Assembly: GCF_046119375.1 (NCBI RefSeq)
Contig: NW_027362771.1
Span: 459,358,001-459,422,000, forward strand
Length of the DNA stretch: 64,000 nt
Direction: 5' to 3'
Origin: Phyllobates terribilis
Taxonomy: Eukaryota
Shown here: positions 17,667 to 64,000 of the stretch, piece by piece
Numbering within the stretch: the first letter of the stretch is position 1
How the letters are laid out: each line of letters opens with the position of its first letter
The notes under the pieces: generated by a model
Databases searched by the model: none
What the model saw: only the letters and a program-made list of their open reading frames with translations
What the model was told of the DNA's origin: nothing
Program-made: the position numbers and the translations under genes

Positions 17667-18667
17667 TGACGCGCCCCTGGGCCTGTGTCGCGCTGCTTTG
17701 CGCACGCGGGAGCTTACCCGGAGCCGGATCTTTTGAGGGTTGTAGTCTCGTGGCGGTGACCCGGTCCGTGCCCAGGGAGTCAAACTGAGCGGCGATGTAT
17801 CAGCGGTAGATGTTGGACGACTACGCCACCCGTTGAGTACAGCTAAGAAGCTGCTGCTGCAGGGCAGACCGCTGAGGCCGGTGGTAGGATTGTGCAGCGT
17901 GATAGTATAACCCCCAACGGGAGGGGTATGGCCTCAGGGCAGCCGACGTGGATGATGGGGGTAGCAGGAACCACTCGGAGACGGTACGGTGTAGTTCAGG
18001 GTCTTTACTGGTGACAAAGATAGACCCTCCCGGAGTACTGGCTAGCGATTGGGGCCTGGTCAGTCCTTGAGCAGATGGGATCTCCCCTGGCCAGGCGGAG
18101 TTGTAGGCCTCCCAAACTAACTGTACTCTTCTGGCTACCTTGCTAGAGGCTGGTATAAGTAGCCCACGTCCCTCAGTGTACCGTGTGGTGCTCACCCGTA
18201 TGGCCGGTGACTCGAGGCCTTCTAGTAGCTTCCGCTCCACGACGGCGGTGCTGGTCCCATGCGTGTGACCGTGCCTTCGGGTTTCTTGGCCAGAGGACCT
18301 GGAATCCCCTGCCTGACGGATTCTGCTGCTGGGTAGGAGTTAGTCCCCACAGCCTCGGACTCCGGGTCCGGTAAGAAATCTTCTCAGTCAGGGCGAGCTC
18401 TGCAGCTGCCAGCCCCTGACTCCTTGTAACACTGCTCCCACAGAGCTCCTGATGTTCTGTTCCTATATTTGCTTCTTTTCTCTGTCTCTACTTCTTCTCT
18501 ACTCACTAACCCTGCCTCAGCCCCAGTTTTATATAGGGGAAGTTCTTCCCCTCCCAGGACTGTGCAGGAGGTGTGGCATGCATAGGATTCCTGACCAAGA
18601 GACCTCCCACCTGCTCTCAGACGTAATATCTCTATCACTGTGGCAACCAGACCCCTGGGGTGTCACA
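17667..18667 (-). repeat. 3' LTR
   Basis: Direct repeat of 24519-25519 (offset 6852); TG...CA termini. Confidence 0.95.
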
Positions 18668-18677
18668 TTCCCCCCTA
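18668..18677 (-). other. Polypurine tract
   Basis: TAGGGGGGAA immediately upstream of the 3' LTR start TGTGAC on the minus strand. Confidence 0.85.
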
Positions 18678-19022
18678 GTGAAATTTAGTACTCCGGGACT
18701 AAACATATTTTAGAAAAACATAACAAGATATAACAATAACAATACAATAAAGAAACACATAAAGGTGGTCACGGCATGTCCGTTACCGGGTGCAGTCTTT
18801 GAAGAAAGCAAGGTGTCCATTTCACCAAAACAGGGAGACGTAACCAGGTAGGGGTCTGTCCTGCCCCGAGTCCTTAACAGTCTTTAGTCCGTCCTGGGTT
18901 ACACTCCAACTATGTACACAGGATTCCCGGTAAATCCACCAAGGACTCCTAAAAATAACTAGAAACACATAATTATTTACAAGTAACAGACAGGTGACCA
19001 CAAATAAAACAATTTAAACACT

Positions 19023-20264
19023 TCAAATCCTCCAACGTGCGGGTAACTGGCCTCTAGTGGCCCTAGTGGACCTACGGAGCTGACTGTCTGGCCCTGAACT
19101 ACAGGGTGTAGGAGCTGTCAAGGGTAAACTGGGCAGCTGTTTACGGGCTCTTTGGCTCACTAGGGATATGGCAGGCTCACTGCAAGCAGAGGGTTGATCC
19201 TCCTGATCTGCTGGTGTGGGGTCTTCTGCCTCCTGGACCGGCTGTTCTTCCAGCTCTACCTGTTGCTCCGTAGGTGCTTGAGATGCTGGTTGGAGGAAGG
19301 TGAGTACGGGTACCACAACTGCACCATTGACTTGAGTCCAAGACCGAGGGAAGTCTCCGAGCACAGTACTAACCATATCTTCCCTTTCCTCTACGGGTCG
19401 ATGGTCTTCTTGTTCCTCTTCAGGGTTCCGTAGCTGTTCAGGACACTTCTTCAGGTGATCCCGGGATACAATGGCTGTGGTCTCCCCTCCGTCTTTACTG
19501 ATGGTACAGACCTTCGGGTTCTCGTGGCTTGAGGGCAGTACGGTGTACGGGTCCTTCTCCCACTGGTCGTCCAACTTGTGGAGCCGTCTTTTCCTCTTCA
19601 AGACCTGCTCTCCGGGCACCAGGGGAACAGCGGGAGCATACTGGTTGTAAGTTTTCTCTTGTCTCTCCCTAGCCTGACAGAGAATTCGCTACACGCTCTC
19701 CTGTACTTTCCGGTACTGCTGCTGCCTCTCTGTGTCCCAGTCTGCTTCTGGTGAAGTGTCCTCGGGTGTCAGGACTCCCATTTCCAGGTCAACAGGTAAC
19801 TTACCAGGTCTCGCCCTCATTAGGTAAGCCGGGGTACAGTTGGTGGAACCTACCGGGATGTGGTTGTATAGGTCCACCAGATCGGGCAGCTTCTCAGGCC
19901 ACAGACTGCGTTCTTCCAGGGGCAACGTTTTCAGAAGATCCATTACCACCTGGTTCATTTTCTCACAAAGTCCATTAGTTTGCGGATGATAGGGTGTCGT
20001 CCTTATCTTCCGGCAGCCATACAGATTGCAGAATTCCTGGAAGACCTCCGCTTCAAAGGCAGGACCCTGGTCCGTCAGCACTTGGTCCGGGTACCCGTGT
20101 GGATGGCAGAAGTGCTGCTGGAAGGCTCTAGCTGCTGTTTGAGCCGTTAAGTCCTTGACGGGGACGACAACCAAGAACCGGGAGTAATGATCCACGATGG
20201 TTAACGCGTAGACGTAGCCACTTCTGCTTGGGGTCAGTTTTACATGATCCAAGGCTACCAGTTC
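19023..20264 (-). pseudogene. Integrase core and C-terminal tail, out of frame with pol and carrying one nonsense codon
   Basis: ELVALDH...VDHYSR...LTDQG...HPQTNGLCEKMN (DDE core). In-frame TAG at 19689-91; frame then continues to 19023. Confidence 0.9.
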
Positions 20265-23242
20265 TTCTGGCTGGCACGGTCCTTCCTTCTTAGGTTGCAC
20301 GGGCCACAGTCTCTGCACCACCTCTCGATAGTTCCCCTCATGCCTACCCAGTGGAACCGCCCGCGCAGCAGGAACTCCAACTTCTTCCATCCGAAGTGTC
20401 CAGCCCCGTCGTGGTATGCCTCCATCACCATGGCTGCGTCTCTTCGTGGCACCACTACTTGCCAGATTAGTTCATGCGTCCGGGAGTTAACCATTCTGCG
20501 GCACAACTTCCCCTTGTAAAGGAACAGTCGACTCTTCTCAGCCCACAGTTGTTTGGCTTCCTCCGGAGCGTCTGGGTCAAGGCGAGCCTCTGGCCGAGTC
20601 AGCATCTCCTTCACCAGTCGGACGGCAGGGTCACTGTCTTGCGTTTCCTCCCAGTTGTAGTGAGGCAAGGGGTTAAACGTAGCGGCTTGCTTACTCCTTA
20701 CCCGATGGGAATACTGGATAGTCCCATGACGGTGGAACGCGGGGAGTTCGACTTCTTCCAGTCCCTCTGGATCTTCTCCTACGTCCGGTAGGTTTGGCAT
20801 CCTGGACAGGGCGTACGCGTTGGTATTGGAGCGTCCTGCCCGGTATTTGATTCTGAACTCGTAGTTGGACAGACGGGCCATCCATCTCTGCTTTAGGGCA
20901 CCGAGTCTTGCCGTGTCCAGGTGTGTCAACGGGTTGTTATCCGTGTACACGACGAACCGGGAAGAAGCGAGGTAGTGCTTAAAGCGTTCCGTGACTGCCC
21001 ACACCACTGCCAGGAACTCTAGCTTAAATGAGCTGTAATTCTCAGGGTTTCTTTCGGTGGGTCGCAGTTTTCGGCTGGCGTAAGCGATTACTCGCTCTTT
21101 CCCCTGCTGGATCTGGGACAGCACGGCTCCTAGCCCGATGTTACTTGCGTCGGTGTAGAGGATAAAGGGCTGGCTGTAATCCGGGTACGCCAGGATTTCA
21201 TCCCCCGTGAGGGCCATCTTCAGCTGGCGGAAGGACTCTTCTTCCAACTTCTCCCATCTGAAGGGCGGCTTCTGGTTCTTGGCCTTCCGGGACTGGCCTA
21301 TCAGGAGGTCCTGCATAGGAGCTGCCTTTTTGGTGAAACCGGGGATGAACCTGCGGTAATAGCCTACCAACCCGAGGAACTGCCGCACTTCCTTTACACT
21401 GGAGGGACTTGGCCATTCCTTAATTGCGGTGATCTTATCAGGGTCGGGAGCCACTCCGTCAGCGCTCACCACGTGTCCCAGGTACTGCACCTTTGGTTTC
21501 AGGAGGTGACACTTGGAGGGTTTCACCTTTAGGCCGTAGCTTGCCAGAGCTTCGAACACTTCCGCCAGGTGTTTCAGGTGGTCCTCATAAGTCTTAGAAT
21601 ATACGATGACATCGTCCAGGTACAACAGGACCGTCTCGAAGTTTCTGTGGCCCAGACAGCACTCCATTAATCGTTGGAAGGTTCCCGGTGCGTTGCAGAG
21701 TCCGAACGGCATACTGGTAAACTCGCTAAGTCCCATCGGGGTGGTGAATGCGGTCTTCTCCCGGTCCGCCTCTGCTACAGGAACCTGCCAGTACCCACTA
21801 GTGAGATCCAAGGTAGAGAAGAAGTTAGCAGATCTTAAAGCAGCCAAAGACTCCTCTATCCTTGGTAAGGGGTACGCATCCTTGTGTGTGATACGGTTGA
21901 TTTTCCGGTAATCTACACACATCCTCATGGTATTGTCTTTCTTTTTGACTAAGACTAGTGGAGCTGCCCAGGGGCTACAGCTATCCCTGATCACCCCAGC
22001 CTCCTTCATGTCTCTAAGCATCCCCTTGGCGTGTTGGTAGTGTGCAGGGGGTACGGGTCGATACCTCTCTTTTATGGGAGGATGGTCTCCCGTGGGGATG
22101 TGGTGTTCTACCCCCTTGACTCGCCCGAAGTCTAACGGGTGTTTACTAAACACTCTCTCGTACTCTTGAACCACCCGATAGACTCCCTGTTTCTGGTGTG
22201 AGGGAGTGGAGTCAGTACCCAAATGTAGTTGCTGACACCAGTCCTCCATTGTTTTCTTAGAGCCGTTACCTTCCTCCGGGTGAGATGGAGGCAAGGGTTC
22301 CACAGATTGTATAGCATTTTGGTTAATGGTATATAATTTGGCTAGCGTGGCATACCGGGGCAGGTACACTTCCCTCTTCCCGATATTGATTATGCGAACG
22401 GGCACCCTCCCATGGCGTACATTAACCACCCCCCGTGCTGTCAAGATGGTGGGCCTACTGTCTGAGTAAACTGGTTCTACCATTGCCTGGTAATCTCTAC
22501 CTCTCAGACCAATAGCTGCCCGGCACCAAATCATCATTTCACTTTTTGGGGGCATGGCAATAGGGAAAGGGTCACACATTCTCACGCTACCAATCTCACC
22601 GCCGGAGAGTTCCACCTGTTGCCGTCGCATCAGTGCCCGGATCTCTTTTTGGAGCACTCGCTGCTCGCCGGAGCTGGCGTTCTTGGCAACCTGCTGTAAA
22701 AGGAAAATCACCTCTGCAAGACAATTTTCGATTACATTAGTTCCTAGAGTTATCTTTGGGTGACTCTCGTGTTTGTCAATGTCTACAATGATCAGTCCCT
22801 GTGCTGCCAGTTCGACTCTACCGATTTTAATGGTCACCTCTTTAAATCCAATCTGTGGCACGGGCTGACCATTGCTGGCGATGATACTCAAGTCGTCGTC
22901 AGGGTAGCGGGTGATATCCGAGTCATTCCAGTACTGCTTGAAGAGCACGTACGGGATGGTGGTGACCTGTGACCCGGTGTCCAGTAGGGCACTCATAGGA
23001 ATGCCATCCAGTACCACGGGTAAGACTGGACGTCCTCCCACATATTTGTCGCGCCAGTTCGATGGGCCTGGTGATCTTTTTCCTGGGGGTTGGCCCTCTA
23101 CCCCAGGTTGTGCCAGTTTAAAGGACAGTACCTTGCCATATGTCCGGGTTGATTGCAGCGGCGGCAGATGGGTCGTCCGTCCTCGTTGTATCGGTCGCTG
23201 GGTCTTCCTCTGGCCGGTGGGGTCCTCCTTGGTCGACGCCAC
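20255..23242 (-). CDS. pol: Pol: protease, reverse transcriptase, RNase H, integrase HHCC domain
   Basis: ALLDTGS, MPFGLCNAP, YLDD, YTDAS, YTDNNPL, H-x4-H...C-x2-C. Confidence 0.95.
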   Translation of the reverse strand: MASTKEDPTGQRKTQRPIQRGRTTHLPPLQSTRTYGKVLSFKLAQPGVEGQPPGKRSPGPSNWRDKYVGGRPVLPVVLDGIPMSALLDTGSQVTTIPYVLFKQYWNDSDITRYPDDDLSIIASNGQPVPQIGFKEVTIKIGRVELAAQGLIIVDIDKHESHPKITLGTNVIENCLAEVIFLLQQVAKNASSGEQRVLQKEIRALMRRQQVELSGGEIGSVRMCDPFPIAMPPKSEMMIWCRAAIGLRGRDYQAMVEPVYSDSRPTILTARGVVNVRHGRVPVRIINIGKREVYLPRYATLAKLYTINQNAIQSVEPLPPSHPEEGNGSKKTMEDWCQQLHLGTDSTPSHQKQGVYRVVQEYERVFSKHPLDFGRVKGVEHHIPTGDHPPIKERYRPVPPAHYQHAKGMLRDMKEAGVIRDSCSPWAAPLVLVKKKDNTMRMCVDYRKINRITHKDAYPLPRIEESLAALRSANFFSTLDLTSGYWQVPVAEADREKTAFTTPMGLSEFTSMPFGLCNAPGTFQRLMECCLGHRNFETVLLYLDDVIVYSKTYEDHLKHLAEVFEALASYGLKVKPSKCHLLKPKVQYLGHVVSADGVAPDPDKITAIKEWPSPSSVKEVRQFLGLVGYYRRFIPGFTKKAAPMQDLLIGQSRKAKNQKPPFRWEKLEEESFRQLKMALTGDEILAYPDYSQPFILYTDASNIGLGAVLSQIQQGKERVIAYASRKLRPTERNPENYSSFKLEFLAVVWAVTERFKHYLASSRFVVYTDNNPLTHLDTARLGALKQRWMARLSNYEFRIKYRAGRSNTNAYALSRMPNLPDVGEDPEGLEEVELPAFHRHGTIQYSHRVRSKQAATFNPLPHYNWEETQDSDPAVRLVKEMLTRPEARLDPDAPEEAKQLWAEKSRLFLYKGKLCRRMVNSRTHELIWQVVVPRRDAAMVMEAYHDGAGHFGWKKLEFLLRGRFHWVGMRGTIERWCRDCGPCNLRRKDRASQKNW

Positions 23243-24078
23243 GGGATGTCCTCCGGTCCGGATGCCAGCTGGATCTTCCCTGGAGTGGAAACCTGTAAAG
23301 ACTGCACAGTTCGGGTTAGCGCAGCAACGCTTTTAGCTAGCTCTTGGACCTGATGGTGCAGGTCTGGAGCCGGGTCATTGTTCAAAGCCTGCGCATCAGC
23401 TCCCACAGGCCCTGCCGACAAGGGTGCCGCCTCCTGGTGGTAAGTGGTAGTGGGGCGTCTGTGGGTCACAACGCCACCTGGTGCCGGTTCTCGGAGCACC
23501 CGGATGGCTCTGTCCTTGAACTGTGCAAATCCCAGATGAGGGTCCTGTAAGGCCATTGCCCGCAACTGGGTTCGGTGGGCATTACAATATAAACCCTCTA
23601 TAAATTGTTCAGTCAACAGCCTGTCCTCGTCTCCCACGCCGTCAGGGTCGGTCTGCTTAATGGCTCTCAGGGCCTCTTGTAGGTTCAGGGCATAGTCCCT
23701 TATACTCTCGTGTGCTCGCTGCTTGCACCCGTAGAATCTAAGCTTGATCTCGGCTGAGGTGCGGGTATCAAAGGTGTCCCTCAGCCGGGTTAGTATCCCT
23801 GCGACAGTCCTCCCCCCAGGTGGCCAGGACTTTACCTCCCTTCGGGCTGCCCCAGTTAATTGGGCCACCAGGATGCTCACTTTTTGCTCTTCTGTGAGGC
23901 GGTACACCTGGAAGAGGCTATCCAGCTTTTCTCTAAAGTCATGCAGGGTATGTGACTCCCCTGAGTACTGGGGTAGCCAGGCCGCTCCCGGGATATAGGG
24001 CATGGTGAAAGGCATGACTGCAGCAGCGGTGGCGCTGGCGGGGGTTGAGGCAGTGAAGCTCTCCTCCGTATCCGACAT
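23098..24078 (-). CDS. gag: Gag (326 aa) with CCHC zinc knuckle
   Basis: CRRCNQPGHMARYC (CX2CX4HX4C); lies between the PBS and pol. Confidence 0.93.
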   Translation of the reverse strand: MSDTEESFTASTPASATAAAVMPFTMPYIPGAAWLPQYSGESHTLHDFREKLDSLFQVYRLTEEQKVSILVAQLTGAARREVKSWPPGGRTVAGILTRLRDTFDTRTSAEIKLRFYGCKQRAHESIRDYALNLQEALRAIKQTDPDGVGDEDRLLTEQFIEGLYCNAHRTQLRAMALQDPHLGFAQFKDRAIRVLREPAPGGVVTHRRPTTTYHQEAAPLSAGPVGADAQALNNDPAPDLHHQVQELAKSVAALTRTVQSLQVSTPGKIQLASGPEDIPWRRPRRTPPARGRPSDRYNEDGRPICRRCNQPGHMARYCPLNWHNLG

Positions 24079-24495
24079 CCTCCTCCCCCCTAGTGGACCG
24101 TGGCCTACCTTGCGATGATCCTCTTCCGTAGGCCGCGGCTCCGCAGTAGATCGTCAGGGTTGAGGACCTTCTGTCGCGCTCCTGTGACGTCGGCGTCTGC
24201 TGGGCTCCTTCCAGGACCTTACGCGACGTCCGGACGTGAGGCGGGGCTTCAGTTCTCGCGCGCTTTCGGAGTCCACGCCCCTCTTCTTCCCGCGCGACGT
24301 CTTCAAGATGGCGTCCAACGGCGGGAAAACTCCACGGAAGGCGGGAAGAAGGCTGAAAATGGCGCCGGATGGCGGGAATCTTCACCGATGGCGGGAAGAA
24401 GGCTGAAGATGGCGCCGGATGGCGGGAATCTTCACCACAGGTAAGTTTGAACAGTCTTTTTCAGGCACGCAGTACCCGGTGGTTGCGGGCACGAT

Positions 24496-24513
24496 ATTCT
24501 GCCGACTACGCCA
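24496..24513 (-). other. Primer-binding site, tRNA-Ser
   Basis: TGGCGTAGTCGGCAGAAT, 5 nt from the LTR; complementary (1 mismatch) to the vertebrate tRNA-Ser(AGA/TGA) 3' end ...ATCCTGCCGACTACG-CCA (recalled). Confidence 0.85.
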
Positions 24514-24518
24514 AAAGT

Positions 24519-25519
24519 TGACGCGCCCCTGGGCCTGTGTCGCGCTGCGTTGCGCACGCGGGAGCTTACCCGGAGCCGGATCTGTTGAGGGTTGTAGTCT
24601 CGTGGCGGTGACCCGGTCCGTGCCCAGGGAGTCAAACTGAGCGGCGATGTATCAGCGGTAGATGTTGGACGACTACGCCACCCGTTGAGTACAGCTAAGA
24701 AGCTGCTGCTGCAGGGCAGACCGCTGAGGCCGGTGGTAGGATTGTGCAGCGTGATAGTATAACCCCCAACGGGAGGGGTATGGCCTCAGGGCAGCCGACG
24801 TGGATGATGGGGGTAGCAGGAACCACTCGGAGACGGTACGGTGTAGTTCAGGGTCTTTACTGGTGACAAAGATAGACCCTCCCGGAGTACTGGCTAGCGA
24901 TTGGGGCCTGGTCAGTCCTTGAGCAGATGGGATCTCCCCTGGCCAGGCGGAGTTGTAGGCCTCCCAAACTAACTGTACTCTTCTGGCTACCTTGCTAGAG
25001 GCTGGTATAAGTAGCCCACGTCCCTCAGTGTACCGTGTGGTGCTCACCCGTATGGCCGGTGACTCGAGGCCTTCTAGTAGCTTCCGCTCCACGACGGCGG
25101 TGCTGGTCCCATGCGTGTGACCGTGCCTTCGGGTTTCTTGGCCAGAGGACCTGGAATCCCCTGCCTGACGGATTCTGCTGCTGGGTAGGAGTTAGTCCCC
25201 ACAGCCTCGGACTCCGGGTCCGGTAAGAAATCTTCTCAGTCAGGGCGAGCTCTGCAGCTGCCAGCCCCTGACTCCTTGTAACACTGCTCCCACAGAGCTC
25301 CTGATGTTCTGTTCCTATATTTGCTTCTTTTCTCTGTCTCTACTTCTTCTCTACTCACTAACCCTGCCTCAGCCCCAGTTTTATATAGGGGAAGTTCTTC
25401 CCCTCCCAGGACTGTGCAGGAGGTGTGGCATGCATAGGATTCCTGACCAAGAGACCTCCCACCTGCTCTCAGACATAATATCTCTATCACTGTGGCAACC
25501 AGACCCCTGGGGTGTCACA
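24519..25519 (-). repeat. 5' LTR
   Basis: Direct repeat of 17667-18667; TATA-like TATATAAAA on the minus strand near 25379-25387. Confidence 0.95.
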
Positions 25520-26084
25520 GTCGCACTGCAGGGGTCATCTTCAATTCCTTACCCCATTTAAACTGCTTGGCCCAAACCTTTACTTGGCAGTAGGAAGGTG
25601 CATCATCACCATATACAGCAATCATTCTTTCATGGGTTTCTCTACACTTCTTTTCTTCCTTTGTAAGGAATTTAATCATGGAACAAAGCTCCAAATCCCT
25701 CACTTTCTTTGTAAAGCCGCACTGTACTGCACTTGCCATCCTGTCACTTCCAGTGCGCTCATCAGACTGAACTTCTACTATGTTGTTGCATATCCCGACA
25801 TGTCTCAACATGCACAGAAAAGCTCAGCTCCCTAAAGCTATGTTCACACGAGGCGTTTTTTCAGCGTTTTTTATGCAAATTTTCAGCTGCGCTTTACAAT
25901 ACCAGCAAAGTCTATGAGATTTCAGAAATCTCATGCACACACATTGTTTTTTTTGTCATCAGTTATTTGAGCTTTGCACGCAGGTATCAGGTTTTGCAGC
26001 GTTTTTTGTGCCAAAACTTGATGAAGTTGAATAGGCAATTTTTTTTTTTGGCACTAAACTTTATCAGCATGCATAAAGAGACAA

Positions 26085-32075: not shown

Positions 32076-35000
32076 TGACGCACCCCCTGGGCCATGTTCA
32101 AGGGATACCCGGAGCCGGATCTGGATGGGGGTAGTAGTCCTTGTGGCGGTGACCCGGTCCGTGCCCAGGGAGTCAAACTAAGTGGCGAGTCTATTAGCAG
32201 TAGATGTTGGATGACTACGCCACCCGTTGAATGCAGCTTTGGAGCTGCCGCTGCAGGGCAGACCGCTGAGGCCGGTGGAAGGATGGTGCAGCGGGGATGG
32301 TATAACCCCCAACGGGAGGGGTATGGCCTCAGGGCAGCCGACGTGGATGATGGGGGTAGCAGGAACCACTCAGAGACGATGCGTGTAGTTCAGGGTCTTT
32401 ACTGGTGACAAAGATAGACCCTCCCGGAGTACTTGCTAGCGATCGGGGCCTGGTCAGTCCTTGAGCAGATGGGATCTCCCCTGGCCAGGCGGAGTTGTAG
32501 GCCTTCCCAGCTAACTGTACTCTTCTGGCTACCTTGCTAGAGGCGGGTAAAAGTAGCCCACGTCCCTGAGTGTACCGTGTGGTGCTCACCCGTATGGCCG
32601 GTGACTCGGGGCCTTCTAGTAGCTTCCGCTCCACGACGGCGGTGCTGGTCCCATGCGTGTGACCGTGCCTTCGGGTTTCTTGGCCAGAGGACCTGAAATC
32701 CCCTGCCTGACGGATTCTGCTGCTGGGTAGGACTTAGTCCCCACAGCCTCGGACTCCGGGTCCGGTAAGAAATCTTCTCAGTCAGGGCGAGCTCTGCAGC
32801 TGCCAGCCCCTGACTCCTTGTAACACTGCTCCCACAGAGCTCCTGTTGTTTCTTCCCATAGCTGCTTCTCTTCTCTGTCTCTACTCCTGGCATGGCCCAG
32901 GAGCTGGGCCCAGCCGGAGCCACAGCTCCCTGTCAGCCCTCCTGGCTGAACTCTCCCTCTGAACTCTCTAACCCTGCCTCAGCCCCAGGTTTATATAGGG
33001 GAAGTTCTTCCCCTCCCAGGACTGGGCAGGAGGTGTGGCATGCATAGGATTCCTGACCAAGAGACCTCCCACCTGCTCTCAGACATAACATTGCCGTTAC
33101 TGTGGAAACCAGACCCCTGGGGTGCCACATTCCCCCCTAGTGAAATTTAGTACTCCGGGACTAAACATATTTTTAGAAAAACATAACAAGGTATAAACAA
33201 TAATAATACAATAAGAAAAACACATAAAGATGGTTACGGCGTGTCCGCAACCGGGTGCAGTTTTTGAAGAAAAGCAAGGTGTCCATTTCACCAAAACAGG
33301 GAGACGTAACCAGGTAGGGGTCTGTCCTGCCCCGAGTCCTTAACAGTCTTTAGTCCGTCCTGGGTTACGCTCCAACTATGTACAAAGGATTCCCGGCAAA
33401 TCCACCAAAGACTCCCATAAATTACTAGAAACACATAATTATTTACAGGATATGGCCGCTCTCAGTCCTCGGCCAGTGGGGATAAGGAATGGCTGCTCAC
33501 AGTCCTCAGCCTGGTTTAAGATAGGGGCACATGGGGAACAATTCACTAATCCCAACGGGGACCATATTTTAATTAGCAGCAGTCCTTGTACCCTTACGGG
33601 TAACTATTTACAGCTCTTTATTCACGCTACTTCCCTTCAGTAGCTATGTCCTCTTTGTGCTCCCTCCTGAGGGTAGTCCTCAGACCCATCCGGGTCCTCT
33701 TGGCTTTCCTCGTATTGGTAGTACTGCAGCTCCTCCTCGGTTAGCTGGGTTAGTATCTCTGCGACAGTTCTCCTCCCAGGTGGCCAGGACTTTACCTCCC
33801 TTTGGGCTGCCCCGGTTAATTGGGCCACCAGGATGCTCACTTTTTGCTCCTCTGTGAGGGGGTACACCTGGAAGAGGCTATCCAGCTTTTCTCTAAAGTC
33901 ATGCAGGGTATGTGACTCCCCTGAGTACTGGGGTAGCCAGGCTGCCCCCGGGATATAGGGCATGGTGAAAGGCATGACCGCAACAGCGGTGGCGCTGGCG
34001 GGGGTTGAAGCGGTGAAGCTCTCCTCCGTATCCGACATCCTTCTCCCCCCTAGTGGACCGTGGCCTACCTTGCGATGATCCTCTTCCGTAGGCCGCGGCT
34101 CCGCAGTGGATCGTCAGGGTTGAGGACCTTCCGTCGCGCTCCTGTGACGTCGGCGTCTGCTGGGCTCCTTCCAGGACCTTACGCAACGTCCGGACGTGAG
34201 GCGGGGCTTCAGTTCTCGCGCGCTTTCGGAGTCCACGCCCCTCTTCTTCCCGCGCGGCGTCCTCAAGATGGCGTCCAATGGCGGGAAAACTCCACGTATG
34301 GCGGGAAGAAGGCTGAAGATGGCGCCGGATGGCGGGAAAACTCCACCGATGGCGGGAAGGAAGCGGAAGATGGCGCCGGATGGCAGGAATCTTCACCACA
34401 GGTAAGTTTGAACAGTCTTTTTCAGGCACGCAGTACCCGGTGGTTGCGGGCACGAAATCCTGCCGACTACGCCAAAGTTGACGCACCCCCTGGGCCATGT
34501 TCAAGGGATACCCGGAGCCGGATCTGGATGGGGGTAGTAGTCCTTGTGGCGGTGACCCGGTCCGTGCCCAGGGAGTCAAACTAAGTGGCGAGTCTATTAG
34601 CAGTAGATGTTGGATGACTACGCCACCCGTTGAATGCAGCTTTGGAGCTGCCGCTGCAGGGCAGACCGCTGAGGCCGGTGGAAGGATGGTGCAGCGGGGA
34701 TGGTATAACCCCCAACGGGAGGGGTATGGCCTCAGGGCAGCCGACGTGGATGATGGGGGTAGCAGGAACCACTCAGAGACGATGCGTGTAGTTCAGGGTC
34801 TTTACTGGTGACAAAGATAGACCCTCCCGGAGTACTTGCTAGCGATCAGGGCCTGGTCAGTCCTTGAGCAGATGGGATCTCCCCTGGCCAGGCGGAGTTG
34901 TAGGCCTTCCCAGCTAACTGTACTCTTCTGGCTACCTTGCTAGAGGCTGGTAAAAGTAGCCCACGTCCCTGAGTGTACCGTGTGGTGCTCACCCGTATGG

Positions 35001-35532
35001 CCGGTGACTTGGGGCCTTCTAGTAGCTTCCGCTCCACGACGGCGGTGCTGGTCCCATGCGTGTGACCGTGCCTTCGGGTTTCTTGGCCAGAGGACCTGAA
35101 ATCCCCTGCCTGACGGATTCTGCTGCTGGGTAGGAGTTAGTCCCCACAGCCTCGGACTCCGGGTCCGGTAAGAAATCTTCTCAGTCAGGGCGAGCTCTGC
35201 AGCTGCCAGCCCCTGACTCCTTGTAACACTGCTCCCACAGAGCTCCTGTTGTTTCTTCCCATAGCTGCTTCTCTTCTCTGTCTCTACTCCTGGCATGGCC
35301 CAGGAGCTGGGCCCAGCCGGAGCCACAGCTCCCTGTCAGCCCTCCTGGCTGCACTCTCCCTCTGAACTCTCTAACCCTGCCTCAGCCCCAGGTTTATATA
35401 GGGGAAGTTCTTCCCCTCCCAGGACTGGGCAGGAGGTGTGGCATGCATATGATTCCTGACCAAGAGACCTCCCACCTGCTCTCAGACATAACATTGCCGT
35501 TACTGTGGAAACCAGACCCCTGGGGTACCACA
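32076..35532 (-). mobile_element. Non-autonomous internally deleted relative of the 17667-25519 Gypsy family (3457 bp)
   Basis: 1054-bp LTRs at 32076-33129 and 34479-35532 (~7 mismatches seen), TSD CTAG, tRNA-Ser PBS 34456-34474 (19-nt match), PPT, 1349-bp interior without pol. Confidence 0.95.
33637..34038 (-). CDS. Chimeric mini-ORF: first ~98 aa of Gag fused to a 35-aa acidic tail
   Basis: Near-identical to Gag of 23098-24078 up to EILTQL, then TEEELQYYQYEESQEDPDGSEDYPQEGAQRGHSY*. Confidence 0.7.
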   Translation of the reverse strand: MSDTEESFTASTPASATAVAVMPFTMPYIPGAAWLPQYSGESHTLHDFREKLDSLFQVYPLTEEQKVSILVAQLTGAAQREVKSWPPGRRTVAEILTQLTEEELQYYQYEESQEDPDGSEDYPQEGAQRGHSY

Positions 35533-54236: not shown

Positions 54237-54801
54237 TTAATTAATCCAGGGATTTAATCTGACTGCCAGATTGGTGTCGGGTAGTGAATTTTTCCTCAAT
54301 GATGTAAATTGGCCTATACCGCATGGTATAGGAATAGCGGAATAGCTGCAGTGCACAAGAAATAGGCTGAACTGGATGGACGCTTGTCTTTTTTCGGCCT
54401 TATAAACTATGTAACTATGTAACTAGTCACAGGTGACAATATTGTTTTATCATTATGGCATTTTTCTGCTTGTTATTGTTATGCACACGCCCGGGCTAAG
54501 CGGCGTGTGCGTGTGATTGGTAGTGATTCCACTGGACCGTGCCGGAGAGTGAATGCCTGGAGGGGCGTGACTAAGTATTCACCCGATCCGACCAGGGTCG
54601 CACGACGGCATACGACGCCAGTGCACCAAGGAGGAACCGAGCAGAGGGACCAGGTGCTACTCCAGGACAGACCCCGGACACGGCTGTTGACCCACACAGG
54701 GGAATACAGGAACAGGCTGGTAGGCTGGCACACAGACTGGTGGGTATAGGCAGGCACGACTGGTATGCAGGCAGGCGGGTATGCAGGCAGGGGGGTAAAG
54801 A

Positions 54802-55041
54802 CAAGCACAGCTAGAGTGCAGACAGGGAGGCACTAGCAGGTAGGAACACAGGCGGGATAGGACCCAGTACACACCGGGACTCAGGAACAATACAGGCAGA
54901 GGGTTACAGGCAAGCACAGCTAGAGTGCAGACAGGGAGGCACTAGCAGGTAGGAACACAGGCGGGATAGGACCCAGTACACACCGGGACTCAGGAACAAT
55001 ACAGGCAGAGGGTTACAGGCAAGCACAGCTAGAGTGCAGAC
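54802..55041. repeat. 109-bp tandem repeat (2 copies plus partial) inside the LTR; also a 49-bp x3 repeat at 55445-55580; both mirrored in the other LTR
   Basis: Units start at 54802, 54911 and 55020; TCAGTTCAGACACGGG units at 55445, 55494 and 55543. Confidence 0.9.
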
Positions 55042-55667
55042 AAGGCTGAGCAGGGAGGACAGGGCTCTGTTCACACGGAACAGACAGGAAGGGAAAGACA
55101 GAGCCAGATACTCACACAGTACTTGCAGAGACAACAAGCAGGAGTTAGGTACGAGTTCAGACTCTGCAGAAAAAGGAAGGGAACGGACATAGAGGCAAAA
55201 CAGGTAAAGGACAGGAGAGAGTTCAGACTGGAACTGAGTGTACGGAGGAGACCGACACTGCAGAGGGATACAGGAGCGGGTCTGGGAATACGGCCCCCAG
55301 AGAGGCGGAACGAACAGGCAAGGAGCGTGTTCAGACAGGACAGACCAGACACAGGAGCGGGTCTAGGAAATCGGCCACTAGAAGGCGAGAGGAACAGGCT
55401 AGGAGCGTGTTCAGACAGGACAGACAAGAGAACACAGAAAGGAGTCAGTTCAGACACGGGAGCTGATACCGCAAAGCAGGAGACATACAGGACTCAGTTC
55501 AGACACGGGAGCTGATACCGCAAAGCAGGAGACATACAGGACTCAGTTCAGACACGGGAACTGATACAAAAAGCAGGAGACAAGAGACGGGACCTGGCAC
55601 CTTCAGAGTGCAAGCACACACTGAAGGAAACACTATGCTCAGGCCGGGATAGAAGGGAGCTGCTGAG

Positions 55668-57572
55668 CTATATACCAAGTGACAGACAGCAATAGGCTGA
55701 GGACGCACAAGGGGTGTGACCCACAGCAGGTACAAAAGGCAGGAAGTGATCGGGCGCCGCCCTTAAGCAGCAGAAACAGACACAAACAGACAGCATGGAG
55801 GGAAGCCAGAGAGACATTCTGGACAGGAGATCAAGTGCGCCCTCTTGCACAGTGGGAGATGGACCACCATGCAAGGACGCCGCCAGGTATGTTACAGTAC
55901 CTCCCCCCTTACGCCCCCTCTTCTTCAGGCCTGCCAGAATCTTCCGCAGGGAATTCGAGGACCAGTCGTTCACTGGGTTGGAGGGGGACAGAGACTTAAG
56001 GGTAATCTCTGCTTCGAGGTACATCTTGTCAAGCTCACAGGAAGAAATAGACGGGTTATCAGGTACATAATGAGAAAAAGTCACTGTCTCTTTGTTATCT
56101 GGTGGTATCCCGGAGGATTCAGGAAACAACTGGAGGTCCTCCGCCGGGTCAGAAGAGTGCAGAGGCTCAGAGAAAACAACTGCTTCAGAGTACACTAGGT
56201 CGGACTCACTGGAGGAAGCGGGCGAGGTATCGGGTACCGAGTATAGGAAAGTCTCTGTCCATTCACCACCAGGTGGCACCCCGAAGGGTTCTGGAGACAG
56301 CTGGCGGTCCTCCGCCTGGTCGGAGGGGTGTAGAGACTCAGGAGTAACCTCTGCTTCAGAGTACACTAGGTCGGACTCACTGGACGAAGCAAGCGAGGTA
56401 TCAGATCCAGGATATAGGAAAGTCTCTGTCCATTCACCACCAGGTGGCACCCCGAAGGATTCTGAACACAACTGGAGGTCCTCCGCCTGGTCGGAGGGGT
56501 GTAGAGACTCAGGAGTAACCTCTGCTTCGGAGTACACTAGGTTGGACTCACTGGACGAAGCGAGCGAGGTATCAGGTACAGAGTATAGGAGAGACTCTGT
56601 CCTTTCGCTACCAGGTAGCACCCCGAAGGGTTCAGGAGACAACTGGAGATCCTCCGCCTGGTCGGAGGGGTGTAGAGACTCGGAGGTAACTACCACTTTG
56701 GGGTACCCATTGTCAGGCTCACAGGACGAAGCGGACAAAGTATTGAGTACCGGGTGTAGAGAAGTCTCTCTCCATTTGTCATCGAGTGGTATCCCAGAGG
56801 GTTCAGGAGGCAACAGGGGATCCTCCGCCAGGTAGTAGAGGTGCACAGACTCTGAGGTAACCACAGCTTTGGAGCATCCTTGGACATGCACACCGGTTAA
56901 AGAGAAAGAAGCATCTGATGCCGGGTGCAGGAAGTTCTCCTGTGTGGAGTCTGGATGGGCAGAAGTCTCTTCGGCCAGGAGAACTGGTGCACTACCCACG
57001 CACATTACCCATTGGGGTTTCTCCGGGATACAGGGAGATGAAGCTTCAGTAGGGACTTCAAGGTTGGGGTCAGGAGGTCTCAGGGAGGACAGACCCTGGC
57101 GTGACGGCTTGCCTCTAAGTCTAGCACGTCTGGACTGCCTCTTGAGGTTGAGAGAAGTATTCCGGAAAGCGTAGTCACCCTGTGAGGATTCTGGGTGGGC
57201 AGTAGTCTCATTGGGCTGGAGGACTATTGCGCTACCCACACACATTACCCGTCGGGGCTGCTCCGGGATATTGGGAAGTGAAGCTTCAGCAGGGGCTTCC
57301 GGGTTAGGATCATCAAAGACCATTAGAAAGGCCACCAGGAAGGCCATTAGGTCCAGGAGGATCGGATCCTGTGTTTCATATAGGGGGTTGATCCATTCCA
57401 AGGCATCACCCGCCAGGTAAGACATAATAAAGGCCACTTTAGCCCAATCGGAAGGAAAATAGAGAGGGTAGGCCTTAAAGTGTAGCATGCATTGCTCCAC
57501 AAATGCACGACACTGTCTTGGATCCCCATAGTAACGTGGCGGATCCGCAGGAACGAGAGCTGATAGATCCAT
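55668..57572 (-). CDS. 634-aa Gag-capsid (PEG10/RTL/LDOC1-like) plus acidic tandem-repeat protein
   Basis: PPRYYGDPRQCRAFVEQC...FPSDWAKVAFIMSYLAGDALEW...F...FDDP (sushi-ichi/Mart capsid N-domain). Five 57-aa repeats. Tail KKRGRKGGGTVT crosses the PPT; stop lies in the 3' LTR. Confidence 0.85.
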   Translation of the reverse strand: MDLSALVPADPPRYYGDPRQCRAFVEQCMLHFKAYPLYFPSDWAKVAFIMSYLAGDALEWINPLYETQDPILLDLMAFLVAFLMVFDDPNPEAPAEASLPNIPEQPRRVMCVGSAIVLQPNETTAHPESSQGDYAFRNTSLNLKRQSRRARLRGKPSRQGLSSLRPPDPNLEVPTEASSPCIPEKPQWVMCVGSAPVLLAEETSAHPDSTQENFLHPASDASFSLTGVHVQGCSKAVVTSESVHLYYLAEDPLLPPEPSGIPLDDKWRETSLHPVLNTLSASSCEPDNGYPKVVVTSESLHPSDQAEDLQLSPEPFGVLPGSERTESLLYSVPDTSLASSSESNLVYSEAEVTPESLHPSDQAEDLQLCSESFGVPPGGEWTETFLYPGSDTSLASSSESDLVYSEAEVTPESLHPSDQAEDRQLSPEPFGVPPGGEWTETFLYSVPDTSPASSSESDLVYSEAVVFSEPLHSSDPAEDLQLFPESSGIPPDNKETVTFSHYVPDNPSISSCELDKMYLEAEITLKSLSPSNPVNDWSSNSLRKILAGLKKRGRKGGGTVTYLAASLHGGPSPTVQEGALDLLSRMSLWLPSMLSVCVCFCCLRAAPDHFLPFVPAVGHTPCASSAYCCLSLGI

Positions 57573-57700
57573 CTGGACGGTGCTTAATTCGCCTGGAACT
57601 CAGCTAAGGGAAAAAAAAAAAATTATTTATTTATTTTAATGCATGTATTCGCTGGAAAACTTCTCAGAGGGCGAAGGCCGTGGGGCTCAACGGGAACCAT

Positions 57701-57711
57701 GGCCTGAGCAT
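57701..57711 (-). other. Self-priming PBS (no tRNA complementarity recognised)
   Basis: ATGCTCAGGCC, 2 nt after the 5' LTR, is the exact reverse complement of GGCCTGAGCAT at 58875-58865. Confidence 0.8.
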
Positions 57712-58864
57712 GCTGTTATGCACACGCCCGGACTGACTGGCGTGTGCGGTTGTAGTGGTTCCACTGGACCATGAACCGGAGAGTGCCTGGAGGGGCGTAA
57801 CTAAGTATCTGGCCGATCCGACCAAGATGGCACGACGGCATACGACGCCAGTGCACCAGGGAGAAACCGGGCAGAGGGACCAGGTGCTACTCCAGGTCAA
57901 ACTCCGGACACGGGGGTTGACCCACACAGGGGAATACAGGAACAGGCTGGTAGGCTGGCACACAGACTGGTGGGTATAGGCAGGCACGACTGGTATGCAG
58001 GCAGGCGGGTATGCAGGCAGGGGGGTAAAGACAAGCACAGCTAGAGTGCAGACAGGGAGGCACTAGCAGGTAGGAACACAGGCGGGATAGGACCCAGTAC
58101 ACACCGGGACTCAGGAACAATACAGGCAGAGGGTTACAGGCAAGCACAGCTAGAGTGCAGACAGGGAGGCACTAGCAGGTAGGAACACAGGCGGGATAGG
58201 ACCCAGTACACACCGGGACTCAGGAACAATACAGGCAGAGGGTTACAGGCAAGCACAGCTAGAGTGCAGACAAGGCTGAGCAGGGAGGACAGGGCTCTGT
58301 TCACACGGAACAGACAGGAAGGGAAAGACAGAGCCAGATACTCACACAGTACTTGCAGAGACAACAAGCAGGAGTTAGGTACGAGTTCAGACTCTGCAGA
58401 AAAAGGAAGGGAACGGACATAGAGGCAAAACAGGTAAAGGACAGGAGAGAGTTCAGACTGGAACTGAGTGTACGGAGGAGACCGACACTGCAGAGGGATA
58501 CAGGAGCGGGTCTGGGAATACGGCCCCCAGAGAGGCGGAACGAACAGGCAAGGAGCGTGTTCAGACAGGACAGACCAGACACAGGAGCGGGTCTAGGAAA
58601 TCGGCCACTAGAAGGCGAGAGGAACAGGCTAGGAGCGTGTTCAGACAGGACAGACAAGAGAACACAGAAAGGAGTCAGTTCAGACACGGGAGCTGATACC
58701 GCAAAGCAGGAGACATACAGGACTCAGTTCAGACACGGGAGCTGATACCGCAAAGCAGGAGACATACAGGACTCAGTTCAGACACGGGAACTGATACAAA
58801 AAGCAGGAGACAAGAGACGGGACCTGGCACCTTCAGAGTGCAAGCACACACTGAAGGAAACACT

Positions 58865-58904
58865 ATGCTCAGGCCGTGATAGAAGGGAGCTGCTGAGCTA
58901 TATA
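58865..58904 (-). promoter_or_regulatory. LTR promoter: TATA box and predicted start site
   Basis: TATATA at 58904-58899; the self-primer sequence begins 29 nt downstream at 58875. Confidence 0.7.
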
Positions 58905-59524
58905 CCAAGTGACAGACAGCAATAGGCTGAGGACGCACAAGGGGTGTGACCCACAGCAGGTACAAAAGGCAGGAAGTGATCGGGCGCCGCCCTTAAGCAG
59001 CAGAAACAGACACAAACAGACAGCATGGAGGGAAGCCAGAGAGACATTCTGGACAGGAGATCAAGTGCGCCCTCTTGCACAGTGGGAGATGGACCACCAT
59101 GCAAGGACGCCGCCAGGTATGTTACAGTTATAACACCTACACTTTCCCTTGAACGTTGAGATATACCTATGTATTAGTTGAGAGGCGTCTTGATAGATTC
59201 ATCTTATTTAGGGATAGAAAGGGACTTTAGGGCTAGCCGCCGAGGAGCGGGGGAGCCACTATGTTCCCCCTAGGGTGCCAACCTCCGCTTCTAGGAACGG
59301 TAAGTTTAGTTACAGTCTAGGATATCAGTGAGGCCTATATATGACAATCAGGTTTGGTTTTATCATTTTTTTTTCTGTGTGTTGTTTGTTTTTGTGCTTC
59401 ACTTTTTTCGGTCAAGGTGGTCTTGACATTTTAGTAAATCAATAAAAGGTTTTATTTAAGGTCTTTATATGATTTATGTAGCTATTGTGACCTTTGATAC
59501 ATTATATTTTCCAAATATAAAGAA

Positions 59525-59805: not shown

Positions 59806-62199
59806 ATAAAGAAGCAATGGGTTAATAACAATCTGTGAAAATATTATCCTTTTTTGGTGCAGTTACAGGTTTATTTACCCTGTACAGGGTTACAGGCAGT
59901 GTTACAGTATAGAGATAGAACACAATTCTGTTTGACATGAATAAGGCATAACCTACCGAAACATGTAGGCCAGTTCAGTGGTTGCTGTATTTTTTACACC
60001 TTTTTTTTAACCAAAATGGAATAAACATTAATGAATAACTGTCATTTTTTTCATAAATCAATAGTAAACATGAAAATAAGAAACTTTGTTATGTATATTA
60101 TTAGAGAAATCTCCCTCTTTGTCCTCCTTGACTGATTTTTAATTCTCAAAATTCTCAGTTTATGGGTGAAATCTGGCTTCAGTGAATACAGTTTTTCTCA
60201 TTATGAAGATAGAATATGACAGTTGATGCTAAAGTTATGAGAACTGTAACTGTCGTTTCAGGAGAACAAGCAGCTAAATATCTGTGTCTGCCTCTAGCTC
60301 CGACCTTCTCCACAGAATTTTAATTTTTAAAAGCACAAACTGTCATGTCCTATCTCTGTAATGGGAAAGTCTGTATTCATTAAATACAGATTTTTACAGA
60401 TATTACACAAGTTTATCTGATAAGATATATTACAAAGTTGGTTATTTTCACGTGCAAAAATATTGATTATGGAATAAAAATTAAAACGATAGTTACTCTT
60501 TAAGTCTTATAGGATTGTCTCTGCATTGCAGGACTCTTTCTAAGTTTGGGGTTGAAAAGGCTGCGGATCAAGGCAGATGTCTGTGCAAGCGGTCAGTAGT
60601 ACGCAAGACAATAGCGGTGACCTGACTTTTGGCAAATGTATTATAAATCACAATGGACAAGCCAGAGATGTGTGTGGAGGTTAACAGTAATTGCACATTA
60701 TAGAATATGATGATACAAGAAGATATCTGGCTGTGTAGAGTCAGCACTGGCATCCCAACTGCAGCAGTACACTATAGCTATAGAAGACATTAGAGAGGCA
60801 GAAGATGTGTGGTTTTCTATCAACAGCTGCAGTGCAATCAGCCACACAGTATAGAATATCCTTTGAAACATATTTTGTTGACTTGCTGCTTTCTAGTACA
60901 TGAAGAATTAAATAAATACTGCCAAAAACTGCTAAACCTGTCTAAATATGTGTGTTGTGTAATGTAGGTGCAATAAAATACTCATTGATTGTCATAGTCT
61001 TTGGTTTCCAGCCGTGCTAGTTCTCTTCTCACTCACATGAATGAAATTCCAACTTGCCGAATTACACTAGAATTTATGTGTGAGCACTTTTGCAATATAA
61101 GTCTATGGAGTTTCAAAATGAGACTCCATAGGTTTGCATTGTAAAAGCAACTTACAGCTCACACATTAATCGCAGTCAGGTCCGTGAGTCAGAATTTCAG
61201 TCACGTAAGTGAGAAGATTAACAGAGAGGTGCTGGTGCAGCGCACAGTTTATGATTTGATTTATGCAGATTGGCCAAAAAATATAAAAAAAATGGATAGC
61301 GCATTTCAAACACTGCTGAAGAATCACATAGCGGGCTAATGGCATCAGGCGTGGCCAGGCAGGCTTTCCATAATGCCCTGTAGCTATCACATCACATAGT
61401 CTAGCACAGCCAATTGGGGGGACTATCACAGCCTTTATAAAAGATGGGGGCCGGCCAAGCAGCGCCATTTTATACTTTTACAGTGTAGCTCATTTCATAT
61501 AGTGTAATGCAGCGGCTTGCGGCATTACAGTAATGGTCCAGGATGTGTTTTGGCAGACCATGTACCTCCCCCAGGTGACTGGTCACATGACTGTGACATC
61601 GCACAGGTCCTGTGCACACAGAAGGTATGATCACATGACTGTGACATCAGCACAGATCCTGTGTGTGCACTAGAGGATAGATAAACCCTGATAGTTTGGA
61701 GCCAGGGTGTGAAAGGCGTGAGGCCTGTTCACTGTGTGGGACACCGTTAGAGTGTGAGGCCTAGTGAGGCCTAGTGAAGCCTGGTGAAGCCTGAAAGGCA
61801 GAGGCTGGATCCTTATGTGTAAGCGATGCCAGTAGCCTTTGAAGGTACGAGGGCTGGAGACCCCAATCTGGGAAGCCGTAAAGCCACAGCTGTGGCAGAA
61901 CAAACCTGAAGCAGATAAAACCTGGCAAAGGTAAAAACACTGATTGATGTGGATATTTATATTGTTACCTTGCTGAAGGCTGTATCTGGAGCCAAGTGGA
62001 CATATCTGCCACTGGAAAGGCTCTTGGACATTATATGTGTAATATGTTGGCGAGCCACTGAGATGGACTCGGTTATAAGCAGTTATGAAGAGTAATAAAC
62101 TGCTGGATTGTGAAATACTGGAAAACATGGCTGGTGTGCTTTAATTGACCCGGTGACGCGAGTGTCCCCCCAGTATGATGACTAGCGCTGCCTTACATG

Positions 62200-62218
62200 T
62201 GGTTGGAGAATGCGGGCA
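62200..62218 (+). other. Primer-binding site, tRNA-Ala(AGC)
   Basis: TGGTTGGAGAATGCGGGCA versus expected TGGTGGAGAATGCGGGCA (complement of recalled ...TGCCCGCATTCTCCA-CCA); one extra T. Confidence 0.8.
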
Positions 62219-62517: not shown

Positions 62518-63217
62518 ATGGCTGTGAACGGAGCAGCAAAAGAACATGAAGCTATTGAGCGATTAAAGTGCCAGTTAAAACCGCAGCAGGTATTTGAGAA
62601 ACGTCTACAGGACATGGTGCAGGAACAGCAGGAGCTGTGGTCACCGTATGGAATGGCAGCAGTGAACCATTCTGTGAACTCTCCGGGGGCGCCAGTATTG
62701 TCCCAGAGTGCCCGGGTCCTAAGACTATTGCTGATTTTTTTTGTAAAAATTCCCCTACTGGTGTGGTTGTTCAAAGGGGGCGGAGTCTAAAAAAGGGGCG
62801 GATTTCCACAAGAGCGTGGAGTATAGAAAACCAAAATTTGTTACTGGTTGTGGGTTGGTACCGCCTAAAAATGACAATTTGACCGTTGATAACGGGATAG
62901 CTCCAGTAGAAGGGGTTGACGTGAAGGTGGGAGGTGACTTGTTGGTCCACGAAACCATGGGGAGTGACACAGACCCCGTAGCTGACAGTGACACTACCAA
63001 AGTAGAACGAGAGTTCAGTCAGGAGGAGCTAGATGAGGAGAGAAAGTCCCCCTCTCGTCATCGACGGCGCAAGGGCCACAAAAAGGTTGCTCCTGTAGTC
63101 TTTGCTTCAAGTGAAAATAAAGAAAATGTAGTACTGTGTGCCTTTGTTTCAAGTGTGGATCCTCCTTTAGAGGCAGAAGAGGAGGTGATGTGGCCAGTAG
63201 CAACCTCCGGTACAGTA
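62518..63217 (+). pseudogene. Element-derived ORF N-terminal region (gag position), frameshifted
   Basis: ATG at 62518 after the leader. Three overlapping frames (62518, 62637, 62816) are linked by probable frameshifts in homopolymer runs. No motif recognised. Confidence 0.5.
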
Positions 63218-63949
63218 CTGAGACAGAAGGATCAGGATCTGACAGCCCTGAAAGAGGAGGTGGCCAGTCATGACCAAGAGCTGGAGCCTATCAGGCAGCA
63301 GTGTCAGAGTGATGTGCAGCAACTATGGGAAAACCTGGAGAACGTGTCCTCAGACCAGCGGCGCCTGGAGTCTGAACGGCAGAAAATATACCAGGTTGTG
63401 AGGAACTTACAGCGAGACCTGGAGGGAAGCAACGAGGAAATTAACCAATGGAAGGAAATGTTCCAGGAAATTAAAGAGGACCGCCGCAAAACCAAGGAGG
63501 AGGTTTTGCAGTTGAAGCTTGAGAAGGAGGCGTTGCAGGATGAAGTTTCTGGATGTGAGCAAAATCTAGAATGACTGCGCGAACAGTTCAACCGGGAGCT
63601 GTGTGAATCCAAGAAGAAATATGGTGAACGCAGTGGGGAACTGCAACAAATTAAGAGAGACTATGAGGATCTCCTCAGTGTTAAAGAAAAACTAGAGGAT
63701 GATAAGGCGGATGCAGAGCACATGTGCCAAGTGGTTGAGACCACTCTGCAGGACAACCGTGATGAAAATGATGATCTCCACAGAAAGACCCTAGGTCTGG
63801 AAGCTCAGGTGAAGGAGCTGCAGACGTTCTGTGATAATCACCAGAGGGCAGAGTTGTGCCTTAAGGAAAGAATCAGCAAGATGGAAGCTGAGCGGAAACA
63901 GATGGAGGAGTCTATCGGAGAAGCCACAGACCACGGCCAGGAGTTGGCC
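63218..63949 (+). pseudogene. cgn: Processed (intronless) cingulin coiled-coil rod fragment within the LTR element; one in-frame TGA at 63572-74
   Basis: [102 protein letters not shown]. These are colinear with vertebrate cingulin as recalled ([66 protein letters not shown]). Confidence 0.85.
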
Positions 63950-64000
63950 ACTGGAGATGGGAGGTATGAAACAGATACCTCCTCGAATAATACGAGCTCG

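Follow-up and report, generated by a model that had tools for sequence, protein, structure and literature searches.

Spliced cingulin and FXR1 mRNA fragments share one reading frame in a high-copy LTR retrotransposon family of the frog Phyllobates terribilis

In the passages of Tan et al. 2016 (PMC5131818) drawn on here, long terminal repeat (LTR) elements are described as copying co-packaged mRNA via template switching, with products that can re-transpose. According to the same passages, LTR-mediated retrocopies hold pieces from within an mRNA, with an LTR element on both sides and without poly(A) or a target-site duplication (TSD) of their own; they sometimes combine several parental genes, are sometimes re-transposed as non-autonomous elements and are often in frame when young. 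Their copy number is one or a few, and most of the older ones (14 of 21) have lost the frame. The maize element Bs1 has a hybrid frame from several host genes with switch points common to all copies, as in the frog element described below, and is present in 1–5 copies, transduced frames being found in one or a few copies (excerpts of PMC5131818 and PMC7264820). Crocodilian endogenous retroviruses (ERVs) with KIT-ligand or nectin3, according to the part of PMC4299795 that concerns them, are vertebrate LTR elements carrying host mRNA under purifying selection; they number 6–9 copies and carry one nearly complete host protein each, in a frame of its own.

We analysed a stretch of 64,000 nt (the window; G000:C11:459358001-459422000) of the 10.6-Gb genome, in which an earlier note, made from the letters alone, had reported an LTR element with a captured piece of cingulin (CGN) mRNA. 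The element runs past the window end, and positions there are given for a locus, L021, that extends the window (L021 position p corresponds to window position p+61000). The whole element (L021:503-5311, 4,809 bp) is flanked by ATAG on each side and has the paired LTRs with TG...CA ends that define an LTR retrotransposon (Table 1); dispersed copies were found as matches on many chromosomes in a genome search. Its internal region (3.4 kb) comprises a leader and a single ~1,000-codon frame. Among the 13 parsed copies of the same subfamily (B, see below), 11 had an exact 4-bp TSD and all 13 had the polypurine tract. A tRNA-Ala(AGC) gene of the genome has a 3' end matching the primer-binding site (PBS), in agreement with the LTR and tRNA-Ala PBS that had been read upstream of the capture. 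From the PBS and the 4-bp TSD we suspect, as an assumption of ours, that the element belongs to a Gmr1-like lineage of Ty3/Gypsy.

Table 1. Features of the window copy and of its continuation in the extended locus
Feature	Position	Strand	Remark
Target-site duplication ATAG, 4 bp	61499..61502	+	Second copy 3' of the 3' LTR, outside the window
5' LTR, 695 bp, TGT...ACA	61503..62197	+	96.5% identity to the 3' LTR
Primer-binding site, complementary to tRNA-Ala(AGC)	62200..62218	+	One additional T in the window copy
N-terminal ~240 codons of the family's one reading frame	62518..63215	+	Frame break near 62715 in the window copy
Rod fragment of spliced cingulin mRNA from six exons (host aa 571-950)	63216..63951	+	Four exact junctions; TGA at 63572
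Start of linker (~190 codons in all)	63952..64000	+	Leads in frame to the FXR1 capture
Spliced FXR1 capture, KH0-(KH1 deleted)-KH2	L021:3498-4143	+	Followed by tail, polypurine tract and 3' LTR
3' LTR, 695 bp	L021:4617-5311	+	Beyond the window end

The window copy is one decayed member of a high-copy, pol-less LTR retrotransposon family. Its frame opens with the ATG at 62518 and is interrupted by the break near 62715, the TGA and more breaks past the window. What had been proposed as the start, 62816, is a GTG lying within a frame that is open from stop to stop (62747-63574). Extending the window, which had been suggested for finding the 3' LTR and pol, yielded the former only: the element contains no pol, reverse transcriptase (RT) or integrase, and a Pfam search of the 998-aa frame of a young copy (P0003) returned only KH_9 (E 1e-25) and, weakly, FXMRP1_C_core. 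The description of the product as a chimera in the position of Gag is not supported either, as no Gag (SCAN, CCHC) homology was found for the N-terminal 240 aa, nor any match to 30 SCAN loci. This part matched only itself at E<=1 among proteins of 548–1,747 aa, had 0 matches in 1.84 billion representative sequences and had no usable match in the Atlas. Atlas matches of the linker were all <=0.85 and were generic coiled coils, which gave no origin for it. No autonomous partner with matching LTR ends was present among 30 of the 150 listed SCAN loci or the other extracted loci, and no pre-cingulin parent element was found among the loci searched.

The primer sites varied. Fourteen of 20 young copies (subfamily C) had a site departing from tRNA-Ala at internal positions, and seven of 13 B copies carried an extra T; such sites (L092-L108, L021-L040) are odd because each round of copying would normally restore the site from the tRNA. 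The tRNA-Ala motif had 323 genome matches, and tRNA genes for Ala, Met and Asn were seen in a tandem array that repeats every 1.32 kb on G000:C3 from 6.54 Mb (L142-L146). Six of the 20 C copies (L090, L091, L096, L098, L100, L104) lie in (AT)n with ATAT-type flanks, which hints at a target preference.

The window also holds other elements. An unrelated, young Gypsy-type element lies on the minus strand at 17667-25522, with 1,004-bp LTRs that are 99.6% alike and frames for CCHC (23101-24153) and RT/integrase (20258-23332); the same family occurs in L049. A short Gypsy derivative (32076-35532) has 1,054-bp LTRs that are 99.3% alike. At 54477-59128, direct repeats of ~1,424 bp, 3.2 kb from each other and 97.5% alike, together with internal tandem repeats, are probably a further LTR element without long frames.

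The cingulin segment aligned to the host cgn gene (on G000:C6) with 89% identity over 736 nt. It crosses exon junctions exactly at 63352, 63501, 63679 and 63886, skipping introns of 88 to 6,347 nt, and none of 53 copy stretches showed any intron sequence; the capture of a spliced, mid-mRNA segment postulated in the earlier note was thereby confirmed. Both ends of the captured piece lie mid-exon, and a run of A10 was present in none of the 40 A and C copies at this place. The reading of positions 63218-63949 as 244 codons with one TGA was likewise borne out. Cingulin was the first match of the read-through query, and among the best 120 protein matches listed the named ones were all cingulin or cingulin-like, the rest being unnamed; none bore the name CGNL1 or myosin, in line with the earlier preference for CGN over both. 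Two of the three in-frame deletions, 12 nt (GALK) and 219 nt (the LKLEKE jump), had been recognised from the letters, and the third, of 171 nt, had been missed; the breakpoints of all three fall within exons. The residues after DHGQELA are unrelated to cingulin at first, as stated, but ~550 nt on the same reading frame enters the FXR1 capture.

The captured segment begins in an exon that is absent from isoform X2; we therefore infer that the template was the longer cgn mRNA. Older copies cross up to six cgn exon junctions and keep the entire 1,186 nt, so the large deletions arose after capture; across the subfamilies the segment went from 1,186 to 706 nt, with 40% of its length gone. At most it spans aa 555-950, lacking the head with its ZO-1 motif and having an incomplete rod and tail, with further deletions in B and C. 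Five A-type proteins grouped with host cingulin as its sister in a protein tree (support 96/92), with Dendrobates and Ranitomeya falling outside this group, and the capture therefore postdates the split from these genera. The dS between the segment and host cgn was 0.13–0.18. The coding exons of host cgn span only 18 kb (L043-L044), several introns being near 100 bp, in a genome of 10.6 Gb.

We estimated the copy number of the family with a 25-nt degenerate pattern for the 3' cgn junction. It had 1,071 exact matches in the genome, and a control pattern had 0; 1,071 is a floor on copies, and the first-look candidates (3,485, 3,033 and 2,846) are not copy numbers. The multicopy family with a common junction that had been anticipated is thus real, and the capture has no TSD or poly(A) of its own. 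RNA-mediated capture within the family is, in our judgement, close to certain.

The copies form three nested subfamilies, of which C is the youngest, each sampled here from the best-scoring matches. Subfamily A (20 loci) has up to 1,186 nt of cgn at 93–95% identity to the host with up to six junctions, and its LTR pairs have a median identity of 94.3% (nine of 20 measurable). Subfamily B, the window type (19 loci, 13 parsed), has 736 nt of cgn and LTR pairs with a median of 96.9%; C (20 loci) has the three deletions of B and lacks a further 30 nt, with a median of 99.5% (range 97–100%), these identities being ungapped for B and from blastn for A and C. All three have in common the N-terminus, the linker, the fxr1 piece, the LTR family and the cgn junctions. 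Frame-wide identity was 88.5% (A–B), 88.4% (B–C) and 83.8% (A–C), and the LTRs of A and B are ~78–80% alike. The fused frame, whose openness had been proposed as a check, was open in none of the 13 B copies, whereas 18 of 20 C copies kept the ~1,000-codon frame open, with an ATG frame of at least 985 aa. Among 46 C places that a genome search scored, 36 were without a stop; these counts, being taken from the best matches to a query with an open frame, give too high a share of intact copies.

Long arrays with an A-type copy roughly every 100 kb were seen on G000:C9, C122, C306, C348, C463, C614, C637 and C815, and some copies were therefore multiplied by segmental amplification, not transposition. 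Six annotated proteins carry the element junctions, five of them named 'cingulin-like' (P0002, P0004-P0007), as the earlier note had foreseen, and one 'uncharacterized' (P0003). P0002 (L069) and P0003 (L089), the latter a young copy annotated as a 998-aa gene, sit between LTRs; P0004-P0007 were judged on their sequence alone. The copies thus produce false cingulin paralogues, and they can swamp cgn and fxr1 read mapping and target capture.

Contigs under three other organism labels covered 30, 30 and 29 of 30 element bins, and the 5' cgn junction was bridged by one X12 contig. In runs X9, X11 and X12, contig depth reached 2.6e5 at the cgn start (L021:2070-2570) and stayed below 1e3 over fxr1. 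The peak looks like target enrichment for cgn that would have co-captured element copies. Coverage in run X13, presumed to be RNA, was considered as expression evidence and set aside, because DNA traces of >1,000 copies would cover the element.

The second captured piece, which lies outside the window and was for that reason missed by the earlier note, aligned to the host fxr1 gene on G000:C3. It crosses six fxr1 exon junctions, and KH1 is deleted in frame. Nucleotide identity to the host was 69% for KH0 and 58% for KH2, with dN 0.27–0.45 and a dS of 1.6–1.8 that is near saturation. Given the far lower dS of the cgn segment, fxr1 was captured long before cgn. In the FXR1 tree, from which two fish rows were left out, the element formed a long branch that the tree did not place, and the piece may have come from a diverged or foreign donor, though KH0 identity was greatest to amphibian rows (61–67% vs 57–59% for amniotes). 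With the tandem Tudor domains, KH1 and an intact RGG region absent or deleted, the piece is an FXR1 fragment and not a family member.

The GxxG loop of KH2 (GRNG/GRSG) was kept in all 20 C copies, 11 of 13 B copies and 10 of 18 A copies (four A copies unreadable). Sequence matches in the PDB were the KH0 and the KH1-KH2 chains of FMRP. A structure model of the module contained two KH-type domains and a long joining helix (pLDDT 80.5, pTM 0.45); its alignment included host FXR1 rows, and the model leans toward that fold. FXR1 KH2, and not KH1, binds kissing-complex RNA in the portion of PMC2722981 that bears on this point. The element KH2 is only 45% identical to the host domain, which is nearly invariant in tetrapods, and host specificity has therefore probably not been kept.

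Selection was assessed with singleton changes in A and B copies as the neutral yardstick, each nonsynonymous or synonymous (N/S) change being assigned to one branch. All 11 indels common to at least four copies were in frame, compared to 31 of 90 private ones (39 copies; p = 2.7e-5), a test that overstates somewhat because some deletions have in-register repeats at their ends and could not have shifted the frame. Stops made up 2 of 348 fixed A–C differences vs 61 of 1,542 singletons (p = 0.0004), 2 of 224 fixed B–C differences (p = 0.02) and 1 of 142 A–B differences (p = 0.06), comparisons that share branches; shifted frames had no stop deficit. The frame has very probably been kept open by selection on the transposing lineages.

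Amino-acid constraint is limited to the KH module. The lineage N/S of fxr1 was 18/20 against a neutral 222/82 (p = 0.002), and that of KH2 with the helix 8/15 against 100/39 (p = 0.001); KH0 gave 5/5 (p = 0.16). Replacement changes per 100 nt numbered 3.1 in fxr1 and ~10 elsewhere, and silent changes 3.5 and 3.4–4.0, respectively. The N-terminus (65/25), cgn (66/22), linker (46/21) and tail (16/10) did not differ from neutral; fxr1 and cgn differed from each other (p = 0.004). The fxr1 signal comes mostly from the C branch (10/15), with small counts and several regions tested, and constraint in A vs B alone did not reach significance, with p = 0.37 for fxr1 (9/6) and p = 0.38 for the whole frame (96/45). 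A net pairwise NG86 omega of 0.58 was dropped as evidence of constraint, within-subfamily neutral pairs having given 0.60–0.66. On the cingulin part there is no constraint: its N/S is not below the neutral 224/99, and the segment shrinks, which gives no support to the proposal of a function centred on cingulin, such as a dominant-negative one. Nothing in the analysis supports the suggested effect on tight junctions.

These patterns suggest that the FXR1 module probably has a role at the protein level. It is unlikely, by comparison, that selection acts on the frame only, with an open frame letting the RNA evade nonsense-mediated or translation-linked decay, the protein being junk and the captures filler. 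Captured coding mRNA would be ready, stop-free filler, and the whole frame is kept while N-terminus, cgn and linker evolve at neutral N/S; left unexplained are the threefold drop in fxr1 replacement changes with silent changes unchanged, and the low dN of fxr1 relative to its dS to the host. Escape of the RNA from decay would explain the open frame but not the KH constraint; both are most simply covered by a translated, KH2-bearing protein that would hold its own RNA.

The frame joins two pieces of spliced host mRNA, the FXR1 KH0-KH2 one old and the cingulin rod one recent, and we lean towards the reading that the FXR1 part binds the element's own RNA and so helps a helper element to copy it. 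The fxr1 and then the cgn mRNA would likely have been captured by RT template switching. The element RNA would be translated into the chimeric protein, and co-translational binding of that RNA by KH2 may stabilise it, localise it or package it into the particles of a helper; a putative autonomous helper element would supply the copying machinery. The kept frame points to a benefit in cis, because selection can act on a non-autonomous element only by way of how well that element itself is copied. The cingulin rod, tolerated because it landed in frame, would serve as an in-frame coiled-coil spacer or oligomer whose sequence and length are of little importance. Judged from sequence, the chances that the role of the FXR1 module is RNA handling in cis are about even. 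That the retrotransposon shed its own genes and rebuilt a cis-acting RNA-packaging protein from host exons (the FXR1 KH module and coiled coils, most recently that of cingulin) while still mobile is a tentative proposal, to which we give somewhat less than even weight; if true, the assembly steps of such a protein are kept as datable subfamilies within one genome.

Two readings would place the benefit elsewhere. The chimera might act as a counter-silencing decoy, derepressing the element by disturbing the complexes of host FXR1/FMRP that take part in germ-line small-RNA silencing. The fly protein dFmr1 works with Aubergine and Piwi in transposon silencing (per a section of the review PMC5454977), and the element has KH0 and KH2 without Tudor domains and KH1, as a truncated competitor would. 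This support is from fly only, however, and the element has strongly diverged from host FXR1; moreover, a trans-acting suppressor would aid broken copies equally, so that stops and frameshifts should have spread on transposing lineages, which they did not. We consider such a decoy improbable. Even less probable is a domesticated master gene, in which one host-useful, LTR-driven chimera under organismal selection (e.g., at junctions via the cingulin rod) sheds copies. Selection at a master locus would yield the same lineage signal, and P0003 is indeed annotated as a gene, but that copy is one among many that are 96–100% alike with young LTR pairs, LTR turnover between A and B speaks against a master gene, and the unconstrained, shrinking cingulin part argues against one acting via cingulin. 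An L1-type processed cgn pseudogene inserted later into one LTR copy has a negligible probability: the piece is intronless like any retrocopy, but it starts and ends in coding exons without poly(A) and has the same junctions in all three subfamilies, and the single-copy version is refuted by the 1,071 junction matches.

LINE-1 ORF1p and Gag are cis-acting RNA-packaging proteins. On the preferred reading, the chimera, with its own RNA as the likely ligand, would resemble them in placing an RNA-binding fold after a coiled coil within the sole frame of a retroelement, with a benefit in cis; this likeness is an analogy of architecture only, with no homology. We found no earlier description of a cingulin- or FXR1-bearing retrotransposon in the literature searched by title and abstract, and an entry in a repeat library (Repbase/Dfam) is possible. 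The main text of the poison-frog genome papers PMC12208295 and PMC6278860 contains neither 'cingulin' nor 'FXR1'.

Captures of genes by LTR elements are known but are usually low-copy and decaying; here, a captured domain appears to have long been used by the element. Unlike LTR-mediated retrocopies, the frog element has passed through three subfamilies in succession, holds captures that differ greatly in age and has kept its frame open, with one constrained module. Compared to Bs1, the family is vertebrate, high-copy and recently mobile, and in contrast to the crocodilian ERVs, a single frame made by fusing two truncated pieces replaces all recognisable element genes. The later of the two captures was taken up without disturbing the frame, and each assembly step is recorded in >1,000 copies, which makes testable how transposons gain protein modules and whether a cis-acting protein is an advantage for non-autonomous elements. 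What is new relative to known captures is the copy number, the serial capture, the loss of recognisable element genes and the lineage-level selection on one module.
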